32,294 nt of DNA from Candidatus Iainarchaeum sp. (GCA_026396975.1 JAPLVT010000024.1:1-32294); one strand, 5' to 3'. Positions 3,321 to 32,294 are shown, numbered from the stretch's first letter. Numbers and translations are program-made. Notes: generated from the letters alone by a model not told the origin.

Positions 3321-4010
3321 TTACTTAAAGCTGAAGCTCTGCCCGGGCTTGAGGATAATAGGCTTTGTTTTCAAAATGCTTTTTTCTATTTTCTGCTTGA
3401 ACTCTTTCGGGTCCTGCTCTATCATCTTGAAAGTGTTGTAGTGCATCGGCACCGCGAAGCGCGGCTTCATTGTTTTAACGGCTTTCACTGCGTCGACGAC
3501 ATCCATTGTGTAGGTGCCGCCGATCGGAAGAAGAGCGACATCCGGGCTCAGGGTCGCGAAATCGTCTATGAGATCTGTGTCGCCGGCGTGGAAAACGCTT
3601 CTGCCGCCGTACGAAACCAGAAAGCCGAGCGGATAGAATGCCTGCGGGTGGTGGACGGCGATCGCCTTTACGCCAATGCCCCTGAGGTTGATGCTGTCGT
3701 TCATTCCAACCGCGTGCAGCTGGTGCTTGCCGAGGTTGAATTCCTGCAGCACCGTTTGCGATGCTACAACGCAGCTGTTGTTTTTCTTCGCGATTTTTTC
3801 TACCAAATCCTTGTCGAAGTGGTCGAAGTGCTCGTGGGAAATCAAAATAAGGTCGATGTTTTTGAAATCGCTCTCTTTCGCAGCGGTTGGCACAAGGCGC
3901 TTGAAGGATGACTCCTTGCAGCTATTCGAAACATACGGGTCGAAAAGAACAGCCTTGTCGCCGAAGGCCAGCTTAAAGAAACTATGGCCGAAGTACTGAA
4001 CAGAAGGCAC
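3321..4010 (-). CDS. Metallo-beta-lactamase fold metal-dependent hydrolase (UPF0173-like)
   Basis: 229 aa with a GTG start. VQYFGHSFFKL..VLFDPY, HxHxDH motif (ISHEHFDHFD), HAGDT, and VALLPIGGTYTMD..AVPMHYNTF. This matches the conserved small archaeal/bacterial MBL hydrolase family. Confidence 0.85.
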   Translation of the reverse strand: MPSVQYFGHSFFKLAFGDKAVLFDPYVSNSCKESSFKRLVPTAAKESDFKNIDLILISHEHFDHFDKDLVEKIAKKNNSCVVASQTVLQEFNLGKHQLHAVGMNDSINLRGIGVKAIAVHHPQAFYPLGFLVSYGGRSVFHAGDTDLIDDFATLSPDVALLPIGGTYTMDVVDAVKAVKTMKPRFAVPMHYNTFKMIEQDPKEFKQKIEKSILKTKPIILKPGQSFSFK

Positions 4011-4065
4011 CCCAAACTACCCATATTAACTTTTCCAGCGTTTTGTTTAAATAACCTACACCCCC

Positions 4066-4222
4066 CAGCGGAAAAAAAATCACGCTCAGGCAAGATTGAA
4101 ATCACGCCGCCTTGCAAACCTGTTGGTTTGCGAGGCCTCGTGAACCCGCTGGTTCACAAGGTCGCTACTGCTAAACACAAAAGTTCGGGAAAAAGACCAT
4201 AATAAACGCCTGCGGCGGCGTT
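4066..4222. ncRNA. Copy 1 of a three-copy structured intergenic element (candidate sRNA, minus strand favoured, or a hairpin-ended MITE/PATE-like element)
   Basis: Conserved block CAGCGGAAAAAAAATCACGCTCAGGCAAGATTGAAATC. Closing stem ACGCCGCC (4104-4111) pairs with GGCGGCGT (4214-4221). Extra perfect hairpins at 4114-4131 and 4140-4157. The minus-strand reading ends in GAGCGTGATTTTTTTT. Confidence 0.45.
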
Positions 4223-4243
4223 TAGAAAAAAATAATAAATCTG

Positions 4244-5038
4244 ATGTGGTTATTATATGGGGTTGTTTTGAGAAAATTTTTGTTGATTGCGGGGCTTCTG
4301 CTGCTTTTGTGCGCCACGGCTTCAGCGCAGTTTTACCTGATTGACAGGCACGCGATTGAGATAACTGTTGACAGGCAGGGAAACGCTGTTGTCAGCGACA
4401 AGTTCTTCATCCAGTTCCAGAATCAGCAGCAGTTGGACGATTTCAGGGCAAAGGTTACGCAGATTGGCGTCAACATTGACGCCTGGCTGGCTTACGATGA
4501 CAGGATAAAGCCCGCAATTGGGGCAGAGAGCGACATAACTGTCAGCAAGGTTTCCTTTGTGGAAGAGCCGAGCGCTTACCTTGAGATACGCTATTCCTTG
4601 AACGATACGCTGATGGAGAAGAAAAGCGAGACAAGCAGGGTAATAGGCTATGGCATCAAGGAAAAGTTTTTCAGCGGATTTTTGGAGGGCAGCCTTTGGG
4701 TGATTCCCGCCGGAACAACAATAACAGTTATCCTTCCCGGCGGCGTGGAAGTGCTGCAGCCGGTTGAACCCGACGCCGCAACCAGCGGCAACACAATCAT
4801 GTGGAGCGGCTACAAGTACAGCAACAAGCTGACCTTGAACTACAACGAATTCAAGCAGATCGCTTCTTTCGACCTTGACAAGGCGTTACAGCAGGTAATG
4901 GAAAGCGACTTGTTCTGGGTAATTGTAGCGGTTCTGGCTGTTAGCGCGCTGCTTGGCCTCTGGAAGCGCAGGGCAATAAGCGAAAAAATAGAGCGCTACA
5001 TTGTCGAGCACAGCGACCTGCGGTCAGAAGAAGAGTAA
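4244..5038 (+). CDS. Secreted or membrane-anchored protein of unknown function
   Basis: N-terminal signal-like segment (LLIAGLLLLLCATASAQ) and a C-terminal TM anchor (LFWVIVAVLAVSALLGLWKRR). No recognisable domain. Confidence 0.7.
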   Translation: MWLLYGVVLRKFLLIAGLLLLLCATASAQFYLIDRHAIEITVDRQGNAVVSDKFFIQFQNQQQLDDFRAKVTQIGVNIDAWLAYDDRIKPAIGAESDITVSKVSFVEEPSAYLEIRYSLNDTLMEKKSETSRVIGYGIKEKFFSGFLEGSLWVIPAGTTITVILPGGVEVLQPVEPDAATSGNTIMWSGYKYSNKLTLNYNEFKQIASFDLDKALQQVMESDLFWVIVAVLAVSALLGLWKRRAISEKIERYIVEHSDLRSEEE

Positions 5039-5049
5039 TCCGGCTGTTC

Positions 5050-5056
5050 TTTTTTT
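5050..5056 (+). terminator. Oligo-T tract after 4244..5038
   Basis: T7 run 12 nt after the TAA stop. Confidence 0.4.
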
Positions 5057-5080
5057 GGATTTCCGCGTAAGAACAAAAGC

Positions 5081-5185
5081 CAGCGGAAAACAAATCACGC
5101 TCAGGGAAGATTGAGACCACGCTGGCGCCATTGCGACCCAAAAGCGCTTAGGGATAAGCCGATAAGAAGTGCCTGCGCCAGCGTT
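5081..5185. ncRNA. Copy 2 of the structured intergenic element
   Basis: CAGCGGAAAACAAATCACGCTCAGGGAAGATTGAGACC. 10-bp stem ACGCTGGCGC (5119-5128) pairs with GCGCCAGCGT (5175-5184). The minus-strand reading ends in GAGCGTGATTTGTTTT. Confidence 0.45.
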
Positions 5186-5254
5186 GCATTGGTGGGAGAC
5201 GCGAGCCCGCGGCAGAGGGTTCTTTGCGGAGCCCGCGCCCCTAACAATCCCTTA

Positions 5255-5340
5255 TTTTGCAATAAGCGCGCGAAACAAAAATTCTGTGTTCCAAGACATG
5301 CGGAAAACCTTTCACTTTGCAATAAGCGTGTAGACCAAAA
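5255..5340. repeat. Direct repeat TTTGCAATAAGCG(C/T)G...AAAA x2, period about 59 bp
   Basis: 5255-5280 ttttgcaataagcgcgcgaaacaaaa versus 5314-5340 actttgcaataagcgtgtagaccaaaa. The second copy covers the stop region of the 56-aa ORF (..LIAK*). The first copy would also read ..LIAK* on the minus strand. Confidence 0.6.
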
Positions 5341-5482
5341 ACGCGAGGACGACAAAGCCAAGCGGGCTGAACAGCACGCCGAACTGCGGCGTTATGCCGA
5401 GGAAAAGCGCGCCTGCGAACAAGAGCAGCATTATTGCCGCTGAGTAAACAACGGAATCGAAGATCGCCCTGAACCTACCCAT
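5312..5482 (-). CDS. Small two-TM membrane protein (56 aa), absent from the ORF track
   Basis: Hand translation: MGRFRAIFDSVVYSAAIMLLLFAGALFLGITPQFGVLFSPLGFVVLAFLVYTLIAK*. GAGG lies upstream (GGTGTGAGGAAAAATG). It has the same architecture and position as the 63-aa ORF 5912..6103 in the neighbouring paralogous cassette. Confidence 0.5.
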   Translation of the reverse strand: MGRFRAIFDSVVYSAAIMLLLFAGALFLGITPQFGVLFSPLGFVVLAFLVYTLIAK

Positions 5483-5545
5483 TTTTCCTCACACCCCAGA
5501 AAATGCTTTCCATGCAGGAACTCCCCTTGAATTCAAACATTTTTC

Positions 5546-5905
5546 TTACCCCAAGAAACTGAAATAAAACGTGTTGATGAAGCTGAGCGCCATCAGCAGG
5601 AAAGTTACTATTATCGCGAAGCGCTTCTGCACCCACCCGCCTTCCGGGAAGAACAGACCGACGAACAACTGCACGGGCAACGCGATTATGAACGGCACCA
5701 GAATCCAGCCGGCGAGATTAAGGATATCGGAGAAAGCGTAAAGCAGTCCGACTATTGCAAGGAAGTGCCAGACCGGCTTGTGGCCTTTTTCTGCGATTAT
5801 CACAAAGGCAGCGAAAGCGAAAAGCCAGTGCAGGTTGTTCATTATAAGCCCTGCTATCCAATTAAGGTCGAAGGACAACAGATGCGAAAGGAATTCAACC
5901 AGCAT
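5546..5905 (-). CDS. Four-TM membrane protein, paralog of 6100..6465
   Basis: MLVEFLSHLLSFDLNWIAGLIMNNLHWLFAFAAF aligns with MFFEFAYHVLSFDFVWIASLIMGNLHWLFAFAAC of the upstream gene. The start lies 6 nt after the stop of 5912..6103. Confidence 0.75.
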   Translation of the reverse strand: MLVEFLSHLLSFDLNWIAGLIMNNLHWLFAFAAFVIIAEKGHKPVWHFLAIVGLLYAFSDILNLAGWILVPFIIALPVQLFVGLFFPEGGWVQKRFAIIVTFLLMALSFINTFYFSFLG

Positions 5906-5911
5906 TTTTCA

Positions 5912-6103
5912 TCACTCGTAAGTAACAAGGTTTATTTCAAAAATCCCCATTCCAAGCAACAGCATCAGGCCTGCAAGCGTCAGCATTTCCGGGCCGAAAA
6001 CAGGCATACCAGCGCTTCCCGCCATGCTTGCGAAAATGAAAATGAAGAAAGTGAACATCACTCCGAAAACCGCTTTCTTGAACCAGCGCGCCATTTTTTT
6101 CAC
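5912..6103 (-). CDS. Small two-TM membrane protein (60-63 aa)
   Basis: A GTG start at 6103 overlaps the TGA of the upstream gene (GTGA); the alternative is ATG at 6094. Hydrophobic hairpin with central GMPVFGP, comparable to GITPQFG in the 56-aa ORF. Confidence 0.6.
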   Translation of the reverse strand: MKKMARWFKKAVFGVMFTFFIFIFASMAGSAGMPVFGPEMLTLAGLMLLLGMGIFEINLVTYE

Positions 6104-6465
6104 CTCATAAAAAAATTGTATGCGACAAGCAGAACCAGGAACTGCAGTTCGCTGACTATCACTAGGTGCTTGCTAAGCGACGGGACGCTCTCGGCAAAAG
6201 CAAGCGCCGCAATTTTTGTAATATAGTAAATCGAAAGGAAGCCGCCGACAAAAACAACCCAGCCGCTTATGCTTTCGAAGTCAACCCAAGTCCAGGCGAC
6301 AACTGAAAGCAAAAAAGTGCCGACAGCAATCTTCTTCCACTTGTCGCCGAAAAAGAAAGCGCAGCAGGCGGCAAAAGCAAAAAGCCAGTGAAGATTGCCC
6401 ATGATAAGCGAGGCTATCCACACAAAGTCAAACGACAGCACATGGTAAGCAAACTCGAAAAACAT
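6100..6465 (-). CDS. Four-TM membrane protein, paralog of 5546..5905
   Basis: The track ORF extends to 6489 (MCCGRGQR...). ATG 6465 (MFFEFAYH...) aligns with the paralog's N-terminus and follows AGAGG. The start is uncertain between 6465 and 6489. Confidence 0.75.
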   Translation of the reverse strand: MFFEFAYHVLSFDFVWIASLIMGNLHWLFAFAACCAFFFGDKWKKIAVGTFLLSVVAWTWVDFESISGWVVFVGGFLSIYYITKIAALAFAESVPSLSKHLVIVSELQFLVLLVAYNFFMR

Positions 6466-6518
6466 CCTCTGCCCTCTGCCGCAGCACACGGGCTGCTTAT
6501 ATTAATTGGCGGGCAGGG

Positions 6519-13085: not shown

Positions 13086-13125
13086 GGGCAAAAAAACCGC
13101 GGAAAATTAAGCCCGCGCCAAGCGC

Positions 13126-13175
13126 AAAAAAAAAAGCTGCGAAAAAAAGAACATCGCATTAGTTGCAAAAAAAAA
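13126..13175 (-). terminator. Multiple oligo-T tracts (minus strand) downstream of 13217..13498
   Basis: The minus strand shows T9 (13167-13175), T7 (13142-13148) and T10 (13126-13135) after the stop at 13217. Confidence 0.45.
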
Positions 13176-13216
13176 GCGGTTTGCGATAAGGGCTAAAATT
13201 AGGCTGGCAGCATTGC

Positions 13217-14688: not shown

Positions 14689-15849
14689 CTAATTCCTACT
14701 TTCCTTTTTAATTGTTTCGCTTTCCCGCCCAGCCGTGCCCTCCAACTTGGCTTTTGGAAAAGCAAGGGAAATCATCACAGTGCGCCCTTTTGCGCCCTTT
14801 ATGGCTTCCTCACAGTTGATGAGGCGCATCCGCTCTAGCTTTGCCCTCAGAGTCCTGAACTGGCGCTGGGTGACAGGCTTTTTAACAGACTTTGCGTAAG
14901 CCCCATAAAGGTCGCCGCTGGCAATCTGCGAATTCGCGGGAACAGCGCGCAGTATAGCCAGTTCGTCAGCACTGAGGAAACCAATGCTCTTCTGCAGAAC
15001 AGCCGCGTCAATCTGCGGAAAGACCTTGCGAAGGTGCGCCACCAAAACCTTTTCCGCGTTTTCCTTCTCCGCCTGCCTCCCTGCCTTCAAAAGGCATTCT
15101 ATCGCAATCCGGGCGTCGCCGCCGAATTTCGCGGCATGCGCGGCCGCGACATTAATAACGTCAGCATCAAGCGCGTTGGAATGGAAGGCGTACTGCACTC
15201 TCTCCTTAAGGATGTCCTTGAGCTGCTGCGGAGTGTACTGCTCAAAGCAGACAGTCTGCTCGCCAAGGCTGCTTCGCACTCTCGCGTCAAGCCTTGCCGT
15301 GAACTCCTGCTGGTTGCTGATGAAAATAAGCCCGAAAGCGCCCCTCTGCTGCTCGCCCCCTCTCAGCAGGTCGTAAAACAGCCTGTCGGCTTCGCCCTGG
15401 TGCAGCAGCTGGTCGGCCTCGTCAAGCACTATTACAGGCACAAAGCCTGTTTTGCGCAAAACAGCGTTCAGCTGGGAGTAAGCCTCATCAGTGCCGATGC
15501 CCCTGCGCGGAGTGGGTGCGCCAAGAAAGTTCGCAATCTGAGTAAGAATAGCGTGGCGCGTGTTGAACTGGAAGCAGTTGATGTAAAGCCCTTTTGCCCT
15601 GTCGCTGTACTGCTGCAGCTCGTTCAGGACAAAGCGCACTGTAGCGGTTTTTCCGGTTCCGCTTTTCCCGTAAACAAAAACATTCTGCGGCTTCTTGCCC
15701 TGCAGCACGGGCTGCAGCGAGAAAACAAGCGCGTCAACCTCGGCATCCCTATGTGGCAGGCGCTCCGGCACAAACTCCGGGTAAAGGAAACGCTCGTCCT
15801 TGAACAAATCATGCGACTTTTTCGCCTTCGCAAAAATATTTTCGGGCAT
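14689..15849 (-). CDS. orc1: Orc1/Cdc6 replication initiator
   Basis: FLYPEFVPERLPHRDAEVDAL, Walker A VFVYGKSGTGKTATV, Walker B VIVLDEADQL, and a C-terminal winged helix. ATG 15849 (MPENIF...) is preferred over the 53-codon upstream extension in the track ORF (to 16008). Confidence 0.9.
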   Translation of the reverse strand: MPENIFAKAKKSHDLFKDERFLYPEFVPERLPHRDAEVDALVFSLQPVLQGKKPQNVFVYGKSGTGKTATVRFVLNELQQYSDRAKGLYINCFQFNTRHAILTQIANFLGAPTPRRGIGTDEAYSQLNAVLRKTGFVPVIVLDEADQLLHQGEADRLFYDLLRGGEQQRGAFGLIFISNQQEFTARLDARVRSSLGEQTVCFEQYTPQQLKDILKERVQYAFHSNALDADVINVAAAHAAKFGGDARIAIECLLKAGRQAEKENAEKVLVAHLRKVFPQIDAAVLQKSIGFLSADELAILRAVPANSQIASGDLYGAYAKSVKKPVTQRQFRTLRAKLERMRLINCEEAIKGAKGRTVMISLAFPKAKLEGTAGRESETIKKESRN

Positions 15850-15928
15850 AAAATGTTTCCCACCGCAAGAAGAAATAATGAACAAATCAATTAAATTACT
15901 ATTCAGCCCCTTAGTTAAACGTCGAAAA

Positions 15929-16038
15929 CATGCCCGCAAAAATGCTTTTTGGGACAGCGGGAATTCCGCGGTCGGGCAGTGGCGGGGGCGGAACATAAAT
16001 GCCAGCAAAAATGCTTTTTGGGACAGCGGGAGTGCCGC
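15929..16038. repeat. Tandem direct repeat (two units of about 41 nt, period 69 nt) in the orc1/nfo divergent intergenic region
   Basis: 15929-15969 cATGCCCGCAAAAATGCTTTTTGGGACAGCGGGAATTCCGC versus 15998-16038 aATGCCAGCAAAAATGCTTTTTGGGACAGCGGGAGTGCCGC, about 38/41 identical. A G-rich spacer (GGCAGTGGCGGGGGCGG) lies between them. Confidence 0.85.
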
Positions 16039-24238: not shown

Positions 24239-27200
24239 TCACCCGACGTAGCTCGGCCTGAACTCCGCGGGGTTTTCCTCGAATTTGTCGTAGACTTCCT
24301 CTACTTTTTCCGAAACGCTCGGCTTTGCCTTTGCGAGCGCGGCATCCAAGTGCGCTTTCTCAATGGGCTTTGGCTGCATCTTGTTTTCCTTCAGCGCAAT
24401 CAGCGCTGCTTCCCTTATCAGGCCCTCTATGTCCGCACCGCTGAAATCCTCGGTTTTTTTCGCGAGCTCTTCAAGCGAAATATCCTTGCCAAGCAGCACG
24501 TCCTTCGTGTGAACCTTTAAGATGGCGAGCCGGCCTTTCTCGTCGGGAGCGCCGATTTTCACAAGCTTGTCAATCCGCCCTGGCCTGAGCAATCCGGGGT
24601 CTATAAGGTCGACCCTGTTTGTTGCGGCAACAAAAATAACGTTCCTGTTCTGCTCGATGCCGTCAAGCTCTGTAAGCAGCTGGTTCACAACCCGCTCGGT
24701 AACATGTGAGTCAGCGCTGAGTCCGCGCCTAACGGCAATCGCATCAATCTCGTCAAAGAAAACAATGCAGGGAGCGACCTGCCGCGCCCTCCGGAAAATC
24801 TTGCGGATTCCCTTCTCGCTGTTGTGGGCGAAAATGCCGCCGAAGCCAGCAACAAAGTTCTGGCACGGTTCGACTGAAATATCGTACACTAAACCGTCGT
24901 ACGGCACTTCTTCCATCTTTTCAACAATATCCCAAAAGATATCCGCTTCGACCAATTTCCATAGTTCAGCGTATTTTTGCCTGCTGAGGTCGACAAGGCA
25001 GAGCGCCTGCATTATCTTGCTCTTGCCGATTGTTTTGTTTTTCGGGTATCTTACAAAAGCCTCGTTTAGCAGCGCTTCTATTTTATTGTCAATCGGGATG
25101 GTGTTGCTCCTTGTCCAAGCGACTTTGTTTATGTACTCTTGCACCATCGAGTTCCTGTGGGCGTCGATGAATCCAGCGGGAGCAAAGCGCTTGAAGTTGT
25201 CCGCGCCAAAAATTTGCACCCTGTGGCTTATTGAACCGGTCCATTCTTTTTTCTCCGCATGATTGGCGACTATTCCCAATTTCAGCAACAGGTACAGGAG
25301 GTCGTTCGCAAGCTGCTGGCTCACTGTTGTCGCCTCAACCATGCTGCTTCTCCCATTGCTTCTTATTGTACCGTCACCGCTAAAATAGCCCTTAAGGAAG
25401 GCATAGACTGCTGCGTTTGAAGAAGCAAGTAGGCAGCCTGGCGCTCTTTTGTTAAACGCCCCGCTTGAAAGCCCCAATTCCTTCAAAACGAGGGTAAGCG
25501 TTGTATTGTTGATAACGATTCCCCTCCCTTCGACGATGGAGTAATCAAGACCGAGGCGGTTAAGCAAATGCTGTGTTCTTTGCATTATCTCAGCATCAGC
25601 TATGGACAGGCGCGGGATGCCCGAGTTGAAATCACCCTCTGCAACCCACAAACCAACCAACTCGAAGAATTCCTCTGAAAGGTCGAAAAACGCGGGCAGG
25701 TTGTTTCTTGCGCCTTTCCTTGCAATCCTGGCCAAAGCCGGGTTTATTCCGATGCCTGACTTTTCGGAAAGCAGGATAAAATTTTTGAGGTCTACTGGCA
25801 GTTTCCCGCGAACGATTTCATAAAGATACTTGTGCTTTAGCCCTGTTAACTCGGAAGTTTTTTTGTAGCCAATCTTTTTGACCATCTCCCTGACCTGCGG
25901 TGATTCAACGAAAAAGCCGGCTCTGCCCCCGAATAGTTCAACGAGATTCAGGCGCTTCCCAGCAGAGGAAATGTTCGGAATCTTTGCTGGAACCGCCACT
26001 ACACTCTTGCCTGCCACCAACTGCGACGGCACTACAGGGGTTATCTCATTCTCAACAAGCGAGAACAGCGAGTGCTTGTCAGTAACCCTTATCCGCCGCC
26101 CGGTTTTTGTTGTTATCTGCAGCATTTTCCCATTAATTTTGTGCTTGATAAAACCGGCGATTTTCGAAAAGAAAACCCTGCCATCGTTATCGAACGTGAC
26201 CACTTGGGCATTTTTCCCCTCGTCAACGATTCGCCCGATTTTCTCCCTCAAAATATTTTTACCATCAAAAACAAGCAGTTCCTCGTCAAAAGGCAGGCTT
26301 TCACCAACCCACATGCTCAAAAGCTCCGGCCCTTTCACTGAAATGAAGTTTGCCTCGCTTTCTGTGGCAACGGCTTTCGCAAGCAAGGTTTTGCCGCAGC
26401 CCGGCGGCCCGAACAAAAGCACTCCAGTCTGCGGCTTGATGCCCATCTTCTTGAAGCTGTCCGCGTACTTGAGCGGCCATTCAACAACCTGGCGCAGCTC
26501 TTCCTTCGCATTCTCCAGGTCGCCGACATCGCTCCAGCGCACGTTAGGAATCTCAATGGCAACCTCCCTAAGCGCACTAGGCTGCACATCCTTAAGGCCG
26601 TTGTTGAAATCCTTTTTGGTAACCTCCAGTGCCTCAAGAATTTCCGGTGGAATTGTTTCCTCCTTCAAATCGATGTCCGGCAGATAGCGCCGCAGCGATT
26701 TCATTGCGGCTTCTTTCACCAGTGCAGTAAGGTCGGCGCCGACGAAGCCGTGGGTTATGCCTGCAAAGTACTCCAGGTCAACGTCTTTTGCAAGAGGCAT
26801 TCCCCTCGTATGAATCATAAGGATTTCGTGCCTCGCCTTCCTGTCGGGCACAGGGAACTCTATCTCCCTGTCAAACCTGCCGGGGCGCCTCAATGCCTCG
26901 TCGATGCTGTTGACCCGGTTAGTCGCTGCAATGACAATCACGTTGCCGCGCGCCTCTAGGCCGTCCATCAGCGCAAGAATCTGCGCGACCACGCGCCTCT
27001 CGACCTCTCCGATAACCTCTTCCCGCTTTGGGGCAATCGCGTCAATCTCGTCGATGAAAATAATGCTCGGAGCGCTTTCCTCGGCTTCCTTGAAAATCTG
27101 CCGAATGCGCTCCTCGGCTTCTCCCACGAATTTGCTCATTATTTCCGGGCCGTTCACTGAGATGAAGTGAGCCTGGGTTTCGTTAGCAACGGCTTTCGCG

Positions 27201-27895
27201 AGCAGTGTTTTTCCGCAGCCAGGAGGACCGTGCAGCAGCACTCCCTTTGGGGGCACAATGCCAAGTTTCATGAACAGTTCAGGGTGCTTCAAGGGCAGCT
27301 CTATCATTTCCCTCACCTTTTGGATCTGCTCGTCAACGCCGCCTATGTCCTCGTAAGTAACTTTTGGGATAAGCTCTATCTCGCTTTTAACGGGCTTTTC
27401 CTTCATCACGAACTGCGTAAGCCCAGTTATTTTCACTATACCGCGGGGCGTGGCATCAACAACCTTGTATACTACTCCTCCGCCGCCGAAAACACTGATC
27501 CAAACATGGTCTCCGATCGCCATCGGCCTGCCCAGAAAGCTCTTTTTCAGAATCTGCTCGTAGCCGATGATATTGATGCGGATTTCCTGCGTCGGCGCGA
27601 GAACGATTTTTTTTGCTTCCTTTGGCTCGGCTTTCCTGACAAATACTTTTTCCTCGAGGCCGACGCCTGCGTTGCGCCTCACAAAGCTGTCCATCCGGAT
27701 GATTTTTTTGCTCTCGTCCTCTGTCCGCGCGGGCCACACGATTGCGGCTGTCTTGCGCACGCCTTCTATCTCGACGATATCCCCGCTGGTGATGCCGAGC
27801 GCCTGCTTGGTTTCCCTGTCAAGCGTAACGATGTTCCTGCCGACGTGCGCAGGGTCAGGCTCTGAGACCTTCAATTCAATTCCTTTTTCAGCCAT
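24239..27895 (-). CDS. cdc48: Cdc48/VAT (p97-type) double AAA+ ATPase precursor, interrupted by an intein in D2
   Basis: N-domain ([27 protein letters not shown]). D1 has Walker A GPPGCGKT and Walker [12 protein letters not shown]2 Walker A GPPGCGKT is followed by WVGE | 493-aa insert | [28 protein letters not shown]. The extein total is 725 aa. Confidence 0.95.
24821..26299 (-). mobile_element. Intein (493 aa) with a LAGLIDADG homing-endonuclease domain inside cdc48 D2
   Basis: Starts with Ser ([13 protein letters not shown], block A). Block B TxxH (VTDKH). LAGLIDADG motifs [11 protein letters not shown] and [12 protein letters not shown]. Blocks [24 protein letters not shown], followed by +1 Ser (SEKG). 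Boundaries were checked codon by codon. Confidence 0.9.
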
Positions 27896-29738: not shown

Positions 29739-31985
29739 CTATTTCTTTTGTGCCGCACTTGAGCCGGGGGCAGCGCGCTTCCTGCCCTTCTTTGCAACAG
29801 CGCCGCCCGCAATTGGAGCGGGCCGCACAACGGCATCTGTGCCCTTGCCATCAACGGCTTTCGGCTCTGCGCCTGCCTTTGGTTCCGCGGCAGTTTTTGG
29901 CAATGCGCCTGCTTTTGGTTCTGCACCTGTTTTCGGCCCTGCACCAGCCGGCTGCGGCTTTTTCTTCCAATCGGCTTTGCTCGGGCAGCCGGGAAGAATG
30001 CACATCTTGTAAGAGTAGCGGAAGCTGCGCACTTGAATCATCGGGTGCCCGCATTGCTCGCAGCGCTTGTCAAGCATTGTAATGCTTCCCTTTTGCGGGA
30101 GGGGAAAGGAATTTGTGCAGGCAGGGTAAGCGGAACATGCGATGAAGCGCTTTCCAGTCCTGCCCTTCCTGACAATTAGCTCGCCCTTGCAGCCAGGTTT
30201 TGTGCACGGCCCGAACATTGCATCAGCCCTGACTGCGCCGCGCAGCATGCTGCCAATGTTGTTCTTGTTCTGCAGCAGCTGCTTCAATATGTCTGACAAA
30301 AATGCCCTGCTTTCAGAAACAACAACCAGCTTCTCCTTTTTTCCGCTTGCAACAAGATCCATTTCCTGCTCGAGGTTAGCTGTCATCTCAGGCTTAACCA
30401 CAAGCCCGTCGTATTTTTCAAGCGCATCTATAACCGCAAAAGCAATCTTGTTCGGCTCTATGGCCTTCTGGCCGCTGATGTACTTGCGCGCGTACAGTTT
30501 CTGTATTATTTCCGCGCGCGTGCTTTTCGTGCCGAGGTTAAGGTCAGACATCGCCTTTATCAGGGCGCCCTGGCTGTAGCGGGGAGGCGGCTGTGTCTCT
30601 TTCTCAAGCAGGTCAAGTTTTAGCAGTAGCACCAAATCGCCTTTTTCCAGGCGCGGCAGCGTTACCTCTGTTGCCTTGCTGTAAGGGTAATAAAATTTCC
30701 AGCCCAGTTTGAGGTAAATCTGCCCTGTTGCGACGAAAGGCTGCTTGTTCAAATCAATCAGTACGCTGAGGTTTTCTGTCACAGCATCTTCTGCGAGAGT
30801 CGCCATGAAGCGCCTGCATACAAGCCCGTAGACCTTCCATTCTGTCGCGTCCAACTGCCCCTTGTGCGCGGCAGTAACCGGGTGGATTGGCGGGTGGTCT
30901 TTCGCGAATTTTCCCGCGCTTGGCACGAGTTTTTTCTGCTGCAAAAGCTTTTCAACCAGCGGCGCGAACTCTTTTACTTTTTTCAGTTCGGCAAGTACCT
31001 CCGGAATGATTAGCGTCGGCGGATAAACGCTGTTGTCAGTGCGCGGATAGGAAATAATCCCCCGCTGGTAAAGGCTTTCCGCAACCTGCATCGCCCTGCT
31101 TGCGGTCAGGCCTATTGCAGTCGCGCTCCTGAGGAAAAGCGTTGTGTTGAACGGCACTGGCCGCGCGAGAACCTTCTCGCTCTTCCTGACTTCCTCCACT
31201 TTTCCGAGCGGCGGCTCTTTGCAGCGCGCAGCCTGTTCGGCTTTTTCCTTTTCCGTGAAGCGCCCTTCCTTGTGCAGCGCTACGAACTGCTGCTTGTCCT
31301 TTTCGAAAAGAGCCTCAATAACCCAGTATTTCTCGGCCTTGAAAGCCAGGCGCTCTTTCTCCCTGTCGACAATAAGCGCGAGAGTCGGCCCCTGCACCCG
31401 GCCCATGCTCAAAAACTCCCTGCCAAGCTGCCCGCTCACAAGCGAAAGGAAGCGCGTGAGCACAGCGCCCCAGATCAGGTCAATCTCCCTGCGCGAGTTC
31501 GCGCTCTCCGCGAGATTGTAGTCGACCTGCTCGAGCTTTGAAAAAGCAGTGCTGATGTCCTTTTCCGTTATCGCGCTGAAAAGCGCCCTCTGCGCCTTCA
31601 CTTTCGGGTTCGACTCTTTTACCAGGTTCAGCGCTTCAAGGCCGATTGCCTCGCCCTCCCTGTCGGCGTCAGTGGCTACAATTACCACTTCAACCTCCGG
31701 CCCGAGCTTTTTCAAAAAATCGCAGATCACTTTCTCCGTCGCCTTGTACTCGACAGGGCTGTTCACAAGCGCGTTCAGGTCTGTGCCAAGCCAGTGGCTG
31801 TACTGCAGCGGAAAATCAACGTCAACAACATGCCCGCGCAGGGGAACAACGCTGCACGGCTTTCCCTGCATCTCAAAATCAAAGTGCGCTGCCTTGTCTG
31901 TCGTGTGCTGCGGCAGCTGCTTTCCAGCAAGAATGCTCGCAATCCTCGCGCCAGCAATGGCTTTTTCGGCGATGATTACTATCAT
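29739..31985 (-). CDS. topA: DNA topoisomerase, type IA (archaeal TopA/Topo III-like)
   Basis: Toprim (MIVIIAEKAIAG, VATDADREGEAIG). Active-site Tyr context GIISYPRTDN. C-terminal Cys4 zinc ribbons (CTKPGCKG..CSAYPAC; CEQCGH..CILPGC). Basic repetitive tail (AEPKAG repeats). Confidence 0.95.
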   Translation of the reverse strand: MIVIIAEKAIAGARIASILAGKQLPQHTTDKAAHFDFEMQGKPCSVVPLRGHVVDVDFPLQYSHWLGTDLNALVNSPVEYKATEKVICDFLKKLGPEVEVVIVATDADREGEAIGLEALNLVKESNPKVKAQRALFSAITEKDISTAFSKLEQVDYNLAESANSRREIDLIWGAVLTRFLSLVSGQLGREFLSMGRVQGPTLALIVDREKERLAFKAEKYWVIEALFEKDKQQFVALHKEGRFTEKEKAEQAARCKEPPLGKVEEVRKSEKVLARPVPFNTTLFLRSATAIGLTASRAMQVAESLYQRGIISYPRTDNSVYPPTLIIPEVLAELKKVKEFAPLVEKLLQQKKLVPSAGKFAKDHPPIHPVTAAHKGQLDATEWKVYGLVCRRFMATLAEDAVTENLSVLIDLNKQPFVATGQIYLKLGWKFYYPYSKATEVTLPRLEKGDLVLLLKLDLLEKETQPPPRYSQGALIKAMSDLNLGTKSTRAEIIQKLYARKYISGQKAIEPNKIAFAVIDALEKYDGLVVKPEMTANLEQEMDLVASGKKEKLVVVSESRAFLSDILKQLLQNKNNIGSMLRGAVRADAMFGPCTKPGCKGELIVRKGRTGKRFIACSAYPACTNSFPLPQKGSITMLDKRCEQCGHPMIQVRSFRYSYKMCILPGCPSKADWKKKPQPAGAGPKTGAEPKAGALPKTAAEPKAGAEPKAVDGKGTDAVVRPAPIAGGAVAKKGRKRAAPGSSAAQKK

Positions 31986-32023
31986 GCAAGTTCAGCCCAA
32001 GCAATTAGTAAAGGAAAGGGATT

Positions 32024-32118
32024 AAAAAAACACGCTCAAGAGAGATTGAAATTACGCCGGCGCTACCGAAAAAGAAAGCGTTCGGGAAGAAGAAAACGCC
32101 AAAGCCTGCGCCGGCGTT
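32024..32118. ncRNA. Copy 3 of the structured intergenic element
   Basis: AAAAAAACACGCTCAAGAGAGATTGAAATT. 10-bp stem ACGCCGGCGC (32054-32063) pairs with GCGCCGGCGT (32108-32117). The internal GTTCGGGAAGAAG block is shared with copy 1. The minus-strand reading ends in GAGCGTGTTTTTTT. Confidence 0.45.
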
Positions 32119-32152
32119 AAAAAACACGGCCAAATAAAAGGGAAAAAGAGCA

Positions 32153-32293
32153 TCACAATTTTTTTTGCAGCGCGCCCGCGGGCAGAACGTTGCTCTGCTT
32201 CACCTCGCTCAGCACGACAAGCGTTTTGATGTCAATGACCCCATCGAACATTCCGATGCTGTTGATTGCCTTTTCCGCGTTCTCCAGGTCCTT
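32153..32293 (-). CDS. 3' end of an unidentified CDS entering from the right edge (...KDLENAEKAINSIGMFDGVIDIKTLVVLSEVKQSNVLPAGALQKKL*)
   Basis: The minus-strand frame is open from the window edge to TGA (32153-32155). No secure domain call. Confidence 0.35.
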   Translation of the reverse strand, partial: KDLENAEKAINSIGMFDGVIDIKTLVVLSEVKQSNVLPAGALQKKL

Positions 32294-32294
32294 G

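Follow-up and report, generated by a model that had tools for sequence, protein, structure and literature searches.

Three intergenic loci of one archaeal contig carry related copies of a short element in which an inverted repeat appeared to be held together by changes on both arms, and this raised the question of whether they encode a structured small RNA or represent a mobile piece of DNA that folds into a hairpin. The sequence analysed, hereafter the window, spans one whole contig of 32,294 nt from a Candidatus Diapherotrites (DPANN) MAG. Its genes include those for tRNase Z, a NOB1-like PIN nuclease and the alpha and beta subunits of PheRS, as well as an RFC-like ATPase, Orc1/Cdc6, a Cdc48 with an intein and a topoisomerase, the gene for which adjoins the third copy. 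A Pfam scan of 30 ORFs identified no transposase, integrase, reverse transcriptase or cas gene in the 32-kb window. DPANN archaea have very small genomes, their non-coding RNAs and repeat DNA are almost unexplored, and the element is both multicopy and selected in a genome ill able to afford ballast.

Anatomy of the unit and its copies in the window

The unit is intergenic and consists of an A-tract (5-8 nt), a box of 28 nt and a hairpin of 64-66 nt that is clamped by a GC-rich 10-bp stem (P1), resulting in a total length of ~95-100 nt, or ~150 nt in a long form, and in a period of ~100 nt where units are arrayed. The box is the best-conserved part and could form a mini-hairpin of 3-4 bp (P0) presenting GGAAAGA on the + strand. 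The hairpin interior of 44-46 nt is purine-rich and non-palindromic, with a second mini-hairpin presenting GGGAAA. The window contains the following features:

4065-4221, + strand: copy 1, long form (cmsearch 93.5 bits, E=1e-20)
4065-4071, + strand: CCAGCGG of copy 1, likely left over from the 3' arm of the unit before it; recurs at 5080-5086
4072-4079, + strand: A-tract of copy 1 before the box (T-tract on the minus strand), found in all copies
4080-4103, + strand: box of copy 1, TCACGCTCAGGCAAGATTGAAATC, with P0 (TCA/TGA) and a purine-rich loop
4104-4108, + strand: outer half of the P1 5' arm of copy 1, ACGCC
4109-4160, + strand: insertion module of copy 1, 52 nt (MFE fold)
4109-4136: hairpin H1 of the insertion, 12 bp including one U.G
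4140-4157: hairpin H2 of the insertion, 7 bp
4161-4165, + strand: inner half of the P1 5' arm of copy 1, GTCGC, pairing with GCGGC with one U.G
4182-4196, + strand: block B of copy 1, AGTTCGGGAAAAAGA, an internal motif like the box core (alignment)
4212-4221, + strand: P1 3' arm of copy 1, GCGGCGGCGT, adjoining the TATA-like TTTAGAAA of the downstream gene
5080-5184, + strand: copy 2, short form (cmsearch 96.2 bits)
5080-5086: relic of copy 2
5087-5094: A-tract of copy 2
5095-5118: box of copy 2
5119-5128: 5' arm of copy 2
5146-5159, + strand: P3 hairpin of copy 2, GCTTA-GGGA-TAAGC
5175-5184: 3' arm of copy 2
32024-32117, + strand: copy 3, short form (cmsearch 106.8 bits)
32024-32030: A-tract of copy 3, doubling on the minus strand as the topoisomerase TATA box (by comparison with the promoters of relatives)
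32031-32053: box of copy 3
32054-32063: 5' arm of copy 3
32078-32092: block B of copy 3
32108-32117: 3' arm of copy 3
32118-32129, + strand: TAAAAAACACGG, the cut-off start of a next unit behind copy 3, repeating TTAAAAAAACACG at 32022-32034

The box CACGCTCAnGnnAGATTGA occurs three times in the window, on the + strand only, compared with 0.27 occurrences expected from shuffles, none of 100 of which reached three; this confirmed the claim of a conserved box at three intergenic loci. The stem arms and their coordinates had also been predicted correctly, with ACGCCGCC (4104-4111) pairing with GGCGGCGT (4214-4221) in copy 1, ACGCTGGCGC (5119-5128) with GCGCCAGCGT (5175-5184) in copy 2 and ACGCCGGCGC (32054-32063) with GCGCCGGCGT (32108-32117) in copy 3, and the pairing of a proximal AACGCC, on which alternative folds had been proposed, is present in copies 1 and 3. 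The loci assigned to the element stood, with the correction that in copies 1 and 2 conservation extends to the left by another 7 nt (CCAGCGG, from 4065 and 5080, respectively), where a 43-nt direct repeat (4065-4107 and 5080-5122) is 91% identical. These two copies are direct repeats on either side of a single surface-protein gene, and copy 2 sits between convergent genes. A lone 10-bp inverted repeat is ordinary in this sequence, because the window has 64 pairs of such repeats within 130 nt; what stands out from chance is the preservation of the stem register across homologous copies via complementary changes.

Copy 1 had been described as carrying an insertion of ~55 nt with additional perfect hairpins. 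The insertion exists, together with both hairpins (4114-4131 and 4140-4157) and the palindrome (4131-4140); it measures 52 nt and is located within the 5' arm (ACGCC / insert / GTCGC). In the long form generally, the arm is split into ACGCC and either GTCGC or GACGC, both halves can pair with the 3' arm, and in copy 1 the 10-bp P1 can still form with the insertion looped out. The same 52-nt module was found in a related metagenome contig (L003), where H1 differs by a compensated change from C-G to A-U. Long and short forms both persist across lineages with topoisomerases that are ~75% identical.

Covariation, tandem arrays and turnover

A metagenome scan identified three contigs with the element, L001, L002 and L003, and related metagenome contigs added four full and two partial copies to the three window loci. 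Seven full and two partial distinct copies were thereby available, all of them mutually related; the covariance model was built on six copies, and eight were aligned. L001 is from a 119.6-kb contig, and the same copy is found again in L013-L016 from other samples, while L002 is a contig of 1,057 nt with one single copy (L002-A) plus an array. Pairwise identity is 59-77% among all copies and 62-74% among those of the window, and since identity within this one genome is just 62-74% the copies represent old paralogs and not a recent burst. Conservation differs between the parts of the unit, with 85% for the box, 80% for the stem arms and 56% for the hairpin interior, for which RNAalifold gave no stable consensus on either strand.

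With P0, P1 and P3 taken as the structure, 92% of cells pair across the eight distinct copies, compared with 30-44% when the partner column is slid, double-sided compensatory changes are seen at four pairs (six cells) and the observed covariation score was reached by none of 500 shuffles, counts that are supportive and do not amount to a proper test because the sequences are few and interrelated and their alignment had been fitted to P1. In this stem, position 5 is C-G, U-A or A-U and position 6 is G-C or A-U; P3 alternates between CUC/GAG, UUC/GAA and UU/AA, and is GCUUA/UAAGC in copy 2. Copies 2 and 3 both have perfect 10-bp stems that are one compensated pair apart, copy 2 having a copy-specific U-A pair. 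The degree of pairing and the outcome of the shuffles support the original prediction that the stem is maintained by compensatory change. Hairpin-templated repair, or selection exerted by a transposase that binds hairpins, can also produce such change in DNA palindromes. Selection acts on a strand-specific folded nucleic acid together with a 28-nt sequence; the RNA nature, the strand and the function of the selected molecule are what we infer in the final section.

The array in L002 is arranged head-to-tail and follows a T-rich tract; a partial unit comes first, then a full one and lastly one that leaves the contig end. The array is located behind the terminator of a gene, and its units contain no ORF. 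The A-tract of L001 and L003 is immediately preceded by 17 nt that repeat the 3' arm (GCGCTGCGGyTGCGTAA). Degenerate units upstream of the L003 copy are weak remains, 2 of 200 shuffles scoring as well, and those upstream of the window copies, and of L001 beyond the 17-nt relic, were not significant when judged against shuffles. Flanking direct repeats measure 17 nt in L001 and L003, 7 nt in copies 1 and 2 and 12-13 nt (the A-tract followed by CACG) in copy 3; they vary in phase and length and are remnants of neighbouring units or arrays, not fixed target-site duplications. Contigs often break at or near copies, and L002 stops within its array.

The distribution of the family is narrow and unstable, being limited to a restricted group of Diapherotrites (DPANN) archaea. 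L001 and L003 carry the element immediately before the promoter of a small ORF, which is itself followed by rpoH-rpoB. Two further loci from sister lineages, L018 and L021, have the same gene order and an RpoB'' that is 88% identical, and there the site is empty, the stop codon of an HD-domain gene and the small ORF lying within ~40-55 nt of each other. The region upstream of the topoisomerase gene in relatives (70-77% identity) has a promoter sequence of its own and lacks the element, which is absent from L024 too. Across ~126 kb from eleven related loci, including those of the topoisomerase and rpoH-rpoB, no copy was detected even with the cmsearch filters off. Pattern scans did not find the element in GTDB representative genomes and yielded just chance matches to the box alone in viral contigs, and BLAST searches of plasmid and phage sequences gave no match to it.

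The orthologous copies in L001 (short form) and L003 (long form) are two compensated stem pairs and the insertion apart. The L003 copy resembles window copy 1 although that locus is unrelated, a likeness that is explained either by different units of an ancestral array having been kept in each lineage or by copies overwriting one another. The family grows by tandem duplication, decays at the edges of arrays and is gained or lost at single intergenic sites.

Comparison with known RNA and repeat families

The earlier statement that no known RNA family is recognisable was borne out by a search against Rfam 15, whose models cover CRISPR-DR, C/D and H/ACA sRNAs, ribozymes, riboswitches, 5S and SRP, and which gave no match over the whole window at gathering thresholds and, at E<=10, nothing overlapping the copies (3900-5600 and 31900-32294 in the window, L002 and L003). 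No tRNA or tmRNA gene was identified in the window by ARAGORN. Features of C/D box sRNAs were not found, UGAUGA being absent from either strand of any copy and CUGA occurring solely on the minus strand inside the box, and neither were those of H/ACA sRNAs, as the stem foot is followed by TTAG, TGCA, TAAA or AAGG rather than ACA and the upper stem has 3-5 bp. The hammerhead core CUGANGA is absent from both strands of the copies, with no Rfam match. A likeness of the unit junction (CCUGCGGCGG...AUCAC) to the 3' end of 16S rRNA was considered and rejected, since the match is 8-9 nt and was equalled by 3-7% of shuffles.

The alternative put forward at the outset, a hairpin-ended mobile element of the PATE/MITE kind, was not upheld, there being no terminal inverted repeats, no fixed target-site duplication and no transposase in the window. 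The ends of the unit are an A-tract plus TCACGCTC on the left and GGCGGCGT on the right and so are not inverted repeats of each other, which argues against a MITE; the inverted repeat P1 begins ~30 nt inward from the left end.

Three further explanations, which are largely refuted and very improbable even when taken jointly, are a CRISPR-like array with a degenerate box repeat and Cas6-like processing, an attC site and a gene for a tiny Arg-rich peptide. The likeness to CRISPR lies in a motif of ~28 nt repeated head-to-tail, in a box that ends in GATTGAAAy/GATTGAGAC, like many archaeal repeats, and in the succession of box, ~70 nt and box behind an AT-rich, leader-like tract in L002. The intervening 65-70 nt, however, are homologous, structured and selected, each segment being a hairpin that is 43-70% identical to the others and shares with them the stem, block B and a GC(G/C)CTGCG motif; because these segments are not unique spacers, the arrangement is not a CRISPR array. 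In addition, the boxes are more divergent (85%), most copies are single, the window has no cas genes and no match to a CRISPR-DR family of Rfam was obtained. With attC sites, including archaeal ones (PMC9668308), the element shares a structure kept over sequence, a variable branching centre, a single-strand-specific fold and the placement of direct copies around a small gene (copies 1 and 2). It differs in having no R''/R' or L''/L' and no intI or other tyrosine recombinase gene in the window, in a 28-nt box that has no attC counterpart and in array units without an ORF; the cores R'' RYYYAAC and R' GTTRRRY were absent from both strands of all seven copies searched. The peptide explanation draws on a TTG-initiated Arg-rich frame of 24 aa in copy 3, MKLRRRYRKRKRSGRRKRQSLRRR, which is a by-product of arms rich in CGC/CGG. 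A small protein gene was rejected, as 1-nt indels disrupt the frame in copies 2 and u1 and stop codons interrupt it in the long forms. In frame 1, L001 and L002-A have 11 non-synonymous and 3 synonymous differences (hand count).

Among repeat classes, REPs are palindromes of 20-40 bp tagged by GTAG or CGTC, and their arrays have been attributed to circular intermediates (PMC3733652). Like REPs and REPINs, the element is a short intergenic hairpin repeat with a one-sided, asymmetric tag, occurs singly, paired or arrayed, keeps its stems and is often found at gene ends (PMC3733652). It is longer (~100 nt), carries a non-palindromic 28-nt box 5' of the hairpin, has a non-palindromic interior and lacks a GTAG or CGTC tag at either stem foot. 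No RAYT/TnpA (Y1 HUH) protein was found in the 32-kb window or in the gene tables of the related loci (~126 kb), where the single transposase is an unrelated DDE transposase in L023. REPINs are symmetric doublets and reportedly also show stem-preserving changes; lineage specificity and vertical persistence are common to these repeats and the element. We know of no description of REPs in DPANN archaea.

In the BOX elements known from Streptococcus pneumoniae, the boxA and boxC ends resemble terminal inverted repeats, and TA duplications are present. The element resembles them in its modular build with optional or repeated internal modules, its stable fold, its intergenic position near promoters and its tandem modules, but it has no ends of the boxA/boxC type and no sequence relationship to them. 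A likeness to multi-hairpin sRNAs is seen in the repeated short hairpins, whose loops are of the GGA type when the + strand is read or of the UCCC type when the minus strand is, and in the apparent duplication of hairpin units. CsrB and RsmZ (GGA loops) and RsaE (UCCC motif) are single genes or small sets of paralogs for which the protein or Shine-Dalgarno target is known, whereas copies of the element are dispersed; to our knowledge, no CsrA homolog exists in archaea. In the literature we found no description of units of this kind, and none are known to us from DPANN archaea. The element lies outside Rfam and outside all the repeat classes compared (REP, MITE, BOX, attC and CRISPR).

Strand of the selected molecule and competing explanations

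The evidence on the strand is split and, as far as the sequences of the copies can indicate, leans slightly to the + strand. Wobble pairs, three in P1 (two in L002 unit 1 and one in copy 1) and one in H1, are G.U on the + strand only, and a tandem G.A/A.G pair in P1 of L002-A would be U.C/C.U on the minus strand. In all seven copies (7/7) the interior has 30-46% A and 9-17% T; an A-rich, T-poor composition is a frequent trait of structured-RNA loops. T-runs occur on the minus strand of all units in the L002 array, and the + strand of these units is free of them. Comparison of 72 upstream regions gave the clade promoter, in coding-strand orientation, as gc-TTTTTAAT or gc-TTTTTATT, and a TATA box typical of the clade is located 23-26 nt upstream of the box in copy 1 (TTTAAATA, 4047-4054) and in the first unit of the L002 array. 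The A-tract is unlike such a TATA box in the + direction, the copies show no consistent terminator for + transcripts and copy 3 has no visible + promoter.

A minus-strand RNA had been favoured originally because each copy, read in that direction, ends in GAGCGTG(A) and an oligo-T tract. That part of the claim stood, with a terminator-like tract of T5-8 in every copy, but a transcript of the minus strand was not established, and the wobble pairs, the arrays and the TATA sequences speak against it. Such an RNA, which we consider rather doubtful, would begin with the hairpin, continue into a single-stranded 3' module formed by the complement of the box (UCUCAAUCUUUCCUGAGCGUGA) and end at the oligo-U. 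UCCC-motif sRNAs of Gram-positive bacteria pair with Shine-Dalgarno sequences, and by analogy the minus-strand loops UUUCCC, UCCC and CUUUCC could pair with G-rich Shine-Dalgarno sequences; the loop of copy 2 is exactly UCCC, closed by 5 bp, and in many of the clade's genes the start codon is immediately preceded by GGGG or GGAGG. The MFE is lower on the minus strand in 6/7 units and the z-score in 5/7 hairpins, and the fourth pair of P0, a C-G in four copies, is in the other three kept as U.G on this strand where the + strand has C.A. The advantage in MFE, however, may arise because a U-rich strand gains chance G.U pairs, and the G.U wobbles in P1 and H1 correspond to A.C mismatches when the minus strand is read. 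Every unit of an array would terminate the transcript, none having its own promoter. Upstream TATA-like sequences would put the start inside or beyond the 5' arm, so that the selected stem could not form, and no minus-strand TATA box was found at a distance that would include this arm.

Our preferred explanation, held tentatively and read from the sequences, is that the copies are a lineage-restricted family of small-RNA genes, transcribed from the + strand, that expands and decays by tandem duplication. It is favoured because old copies keep intact, covarying stems and conserved loop motifs. On the + strand, the box would be a 5' module that stays single-stranded and is recognised by a protein or through base pairing, the clamped hairpin would supply stability and arrays would be read as multi-unit precursors. 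Presence and absence at orthologous sites and the narrow distribution look like mobile DNA and count against an RNA gene. The main rival is selfish DNA, namely a non-autonomous REP/REPIN or a relic of IS200/IS605 with a hairpin that folds as ssDNA, an explanation that is possible and to which we give somewhat less credence. Here the box would be the recognition or cleavage site of a trans-acting enzyme, HUH-type or other, encoded elsewhere in the genome, and arrays and leftovers of varying phase would stem from circular or rolling-circle intermediates. It is consistent with the filled sites in L003 and L001 as compared with the empty ones in L018 and L021 and the lack of a copy in L024, with the occupation of unrelated loci in different lineages and none in ~126 kb of relatives, and with the flanking partial units, arrays and contig breaks near copies; a hairpin with an asymmetric conserved tag at one end is moreover the layout of a REP, and the stem-preserving changes reported for REPINs would agree. 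Against selfish DNA, the copies are old (59-77% identity) with intact stems and no young, near-identical set among them, and they lack a GTAG/CGTC tag, terminal inverted repeats and a fixed target-site duplication. Neither the window nor the gene tables of the ~126 kb of relatives contained a Y1/HUH transposase, integrase or reverse transcriptase, and conserved loop motifs (block B and the covariation of P3) are unexpected in the substrate of a transposase.

A cis-acting promoter module of DNA, in which the box would be a protein site and the GC-rich stem an insulator or cruciform, and in which either end of the unit, set against a TATA box at the position of the TFB-recognition element, would modulate the adjacent genes, is improbable. 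The 3' arm does adjoin a downstream TATA in copy 1, L001 and L003 and lies within ~10 nt of one in L002-A, the box end of copy 3 adjoins the topoisomerase TATA where relatives have their own sequence, and GAGCG-TGA-TTTTT resembles GAGCG-AAGA-TTTTTATAC of a genuine promoter in L021. However, there is no promoter for copy 2 to serve, flanked as it is by convergent genes, nor for the L002 array behind its terminator, the genes next to the copies are unrelated in function, and compact genomes put any tolerated intergenic insertion beside a promoter; covariation in P1, P3 and H1 is likewise unexpected for binding sites in duplex DNA. Less improbable than this module, and still unlikely, is a hitherto undescribed archaeal tandem-array RNA system in which arrays would be transcribed and cut at the box by a nuclease or by the RNA itself. 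Clamped hairpin RNAs of ~65 nt would then be released in a biogenesis resembling that of CRISPR without spacers, and new units and loci would come from circular or multimeric intermediates, which would account for the partial units of varying phase.

If the small-RNA explanation is right, the copies would constitute a lineage-specific family of regulatory or protein-binding RNAs with an unusual array organisation; if they are selfish DNA, they would constitute a REP-like system in archaea. The covariance model, the defined coordinates and the sediment metagenomes that contain the element provide a testable handle on these explanations. The element is present in several such metagenomes (Ga03152xx series).

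Possible element remnants in coding sequence, and other repeats and low-complexity tracts

The genes lying 5' of the box-and-hairpin element in two metagenome contigs, L001 (positions 16-786) and L003 (413-1108), have C-terminal tails that extend into degenerate element sequence, and the HD-domain protein of L003 exceeds its L018 and L021 orthologs in length by ~35 residues; in these two sister lineages the orthologous rpoH-rpoB site is without the element. Together, the tails and the longer L003 protein suggest that coding sequence can absorb decayed element units, with the L001 case lacking statistical support.

Repeats of other kinds were observed in the window directly 3' of copy 2 of the element, and A-rich tracts are inserted between the genes of the L018 rpoB''-rpoB'-rpoA'-rpoA'' operon.

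Repeats beyond copy 2 and A-rich tracts in L018
Window 5196-5240 and 5256-5341: palindrome and direct-repeat region beyond copy 2
L018 11468-11666, 13491-13679 and 16302-16581: A-rich tracts

The region beyond copy 2 comprises an imperfect palindrome, rich in G+C (GGGAGACGCGAGCCCGCGG...CCGCGGGCTCGCGTCTCCC, minus-strand reading), immediately 3' of the copy, and a 26-nt direct repeat (TTTGCAATAAGCG...) with a spacing of 60 nt; folding of 5196-5240 and 5256-5341 was no better than that of shuffled sequences. The A-rich insertions are low-complexity tracts of 190-280 nt that bear no sequence relation to the box-and-hairpin element, and the same operon genes are closely packed in L013, a contig from another sample that shares the L001 copy.

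Promoters and a candidate replication origin

A clear coding-strand promoter consensus for the clade, gc-TTTTTAAT or TTTTTATT, mostly located 25-50 nt upstream of the start codon, was drawn from 72 upstream regions of the window, the related loci L004 and L005, L013, L018 and L021. In the same set, many genes carried a GGGG or GGAGG ribosome-binding site. A 125-nt intergenic stretch (window 13092-13216) lies ~1.5 kb from an Orc1/Cdc6 gene and could be a replication origin; its G+C content is only ~37% in the region matched by cmsearch.

Genes of the window and its relatives

Protein-coding features
Window 5546-5905 and 6100-6489, both minus strand: two paralogous small membrane proteins
Window 14689-16008, minus strand: Orc1/Cdc6, with Cdc6 lid and AAA domains and a weak C-terminal winged-helix domain match
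Window 24239-27895, minus strand: Cdc48/VCP ATPase, split by an intein that carries a homing-endonuclease domain of the LAGLIDADG type
L023 7312-8439, minus strand: DDE transposase/MazE-like entry

The membrane protein paralogs, which are adjoined by short membrane ORFs, have in common the motif H(L/V)LSFD(L/F)xWIAxLIMxNLHWLFAFAA; a Pfam scan of the 5546-5905 protein gave no assignment. Among orthologs of the Cdc48/VCP ATPase, the one in L005 likewise contains an intein, and the one in L004 has none. In the relative L023 (GCA_964640195.1), genes next to the topoisomerase gene encode a DDE transposase (IS240/rve_3) and a MazE-like protein; IS elements thus do occur in this archaeal group, and this transposase has no link to the box-and-hairpin repeat. 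The topoisomerase gene of the window, which adjoins copy 3, contains within its C-terminal part a 36-nt tandem repeat (29859-29937; 2.2 copies, 79% matches).
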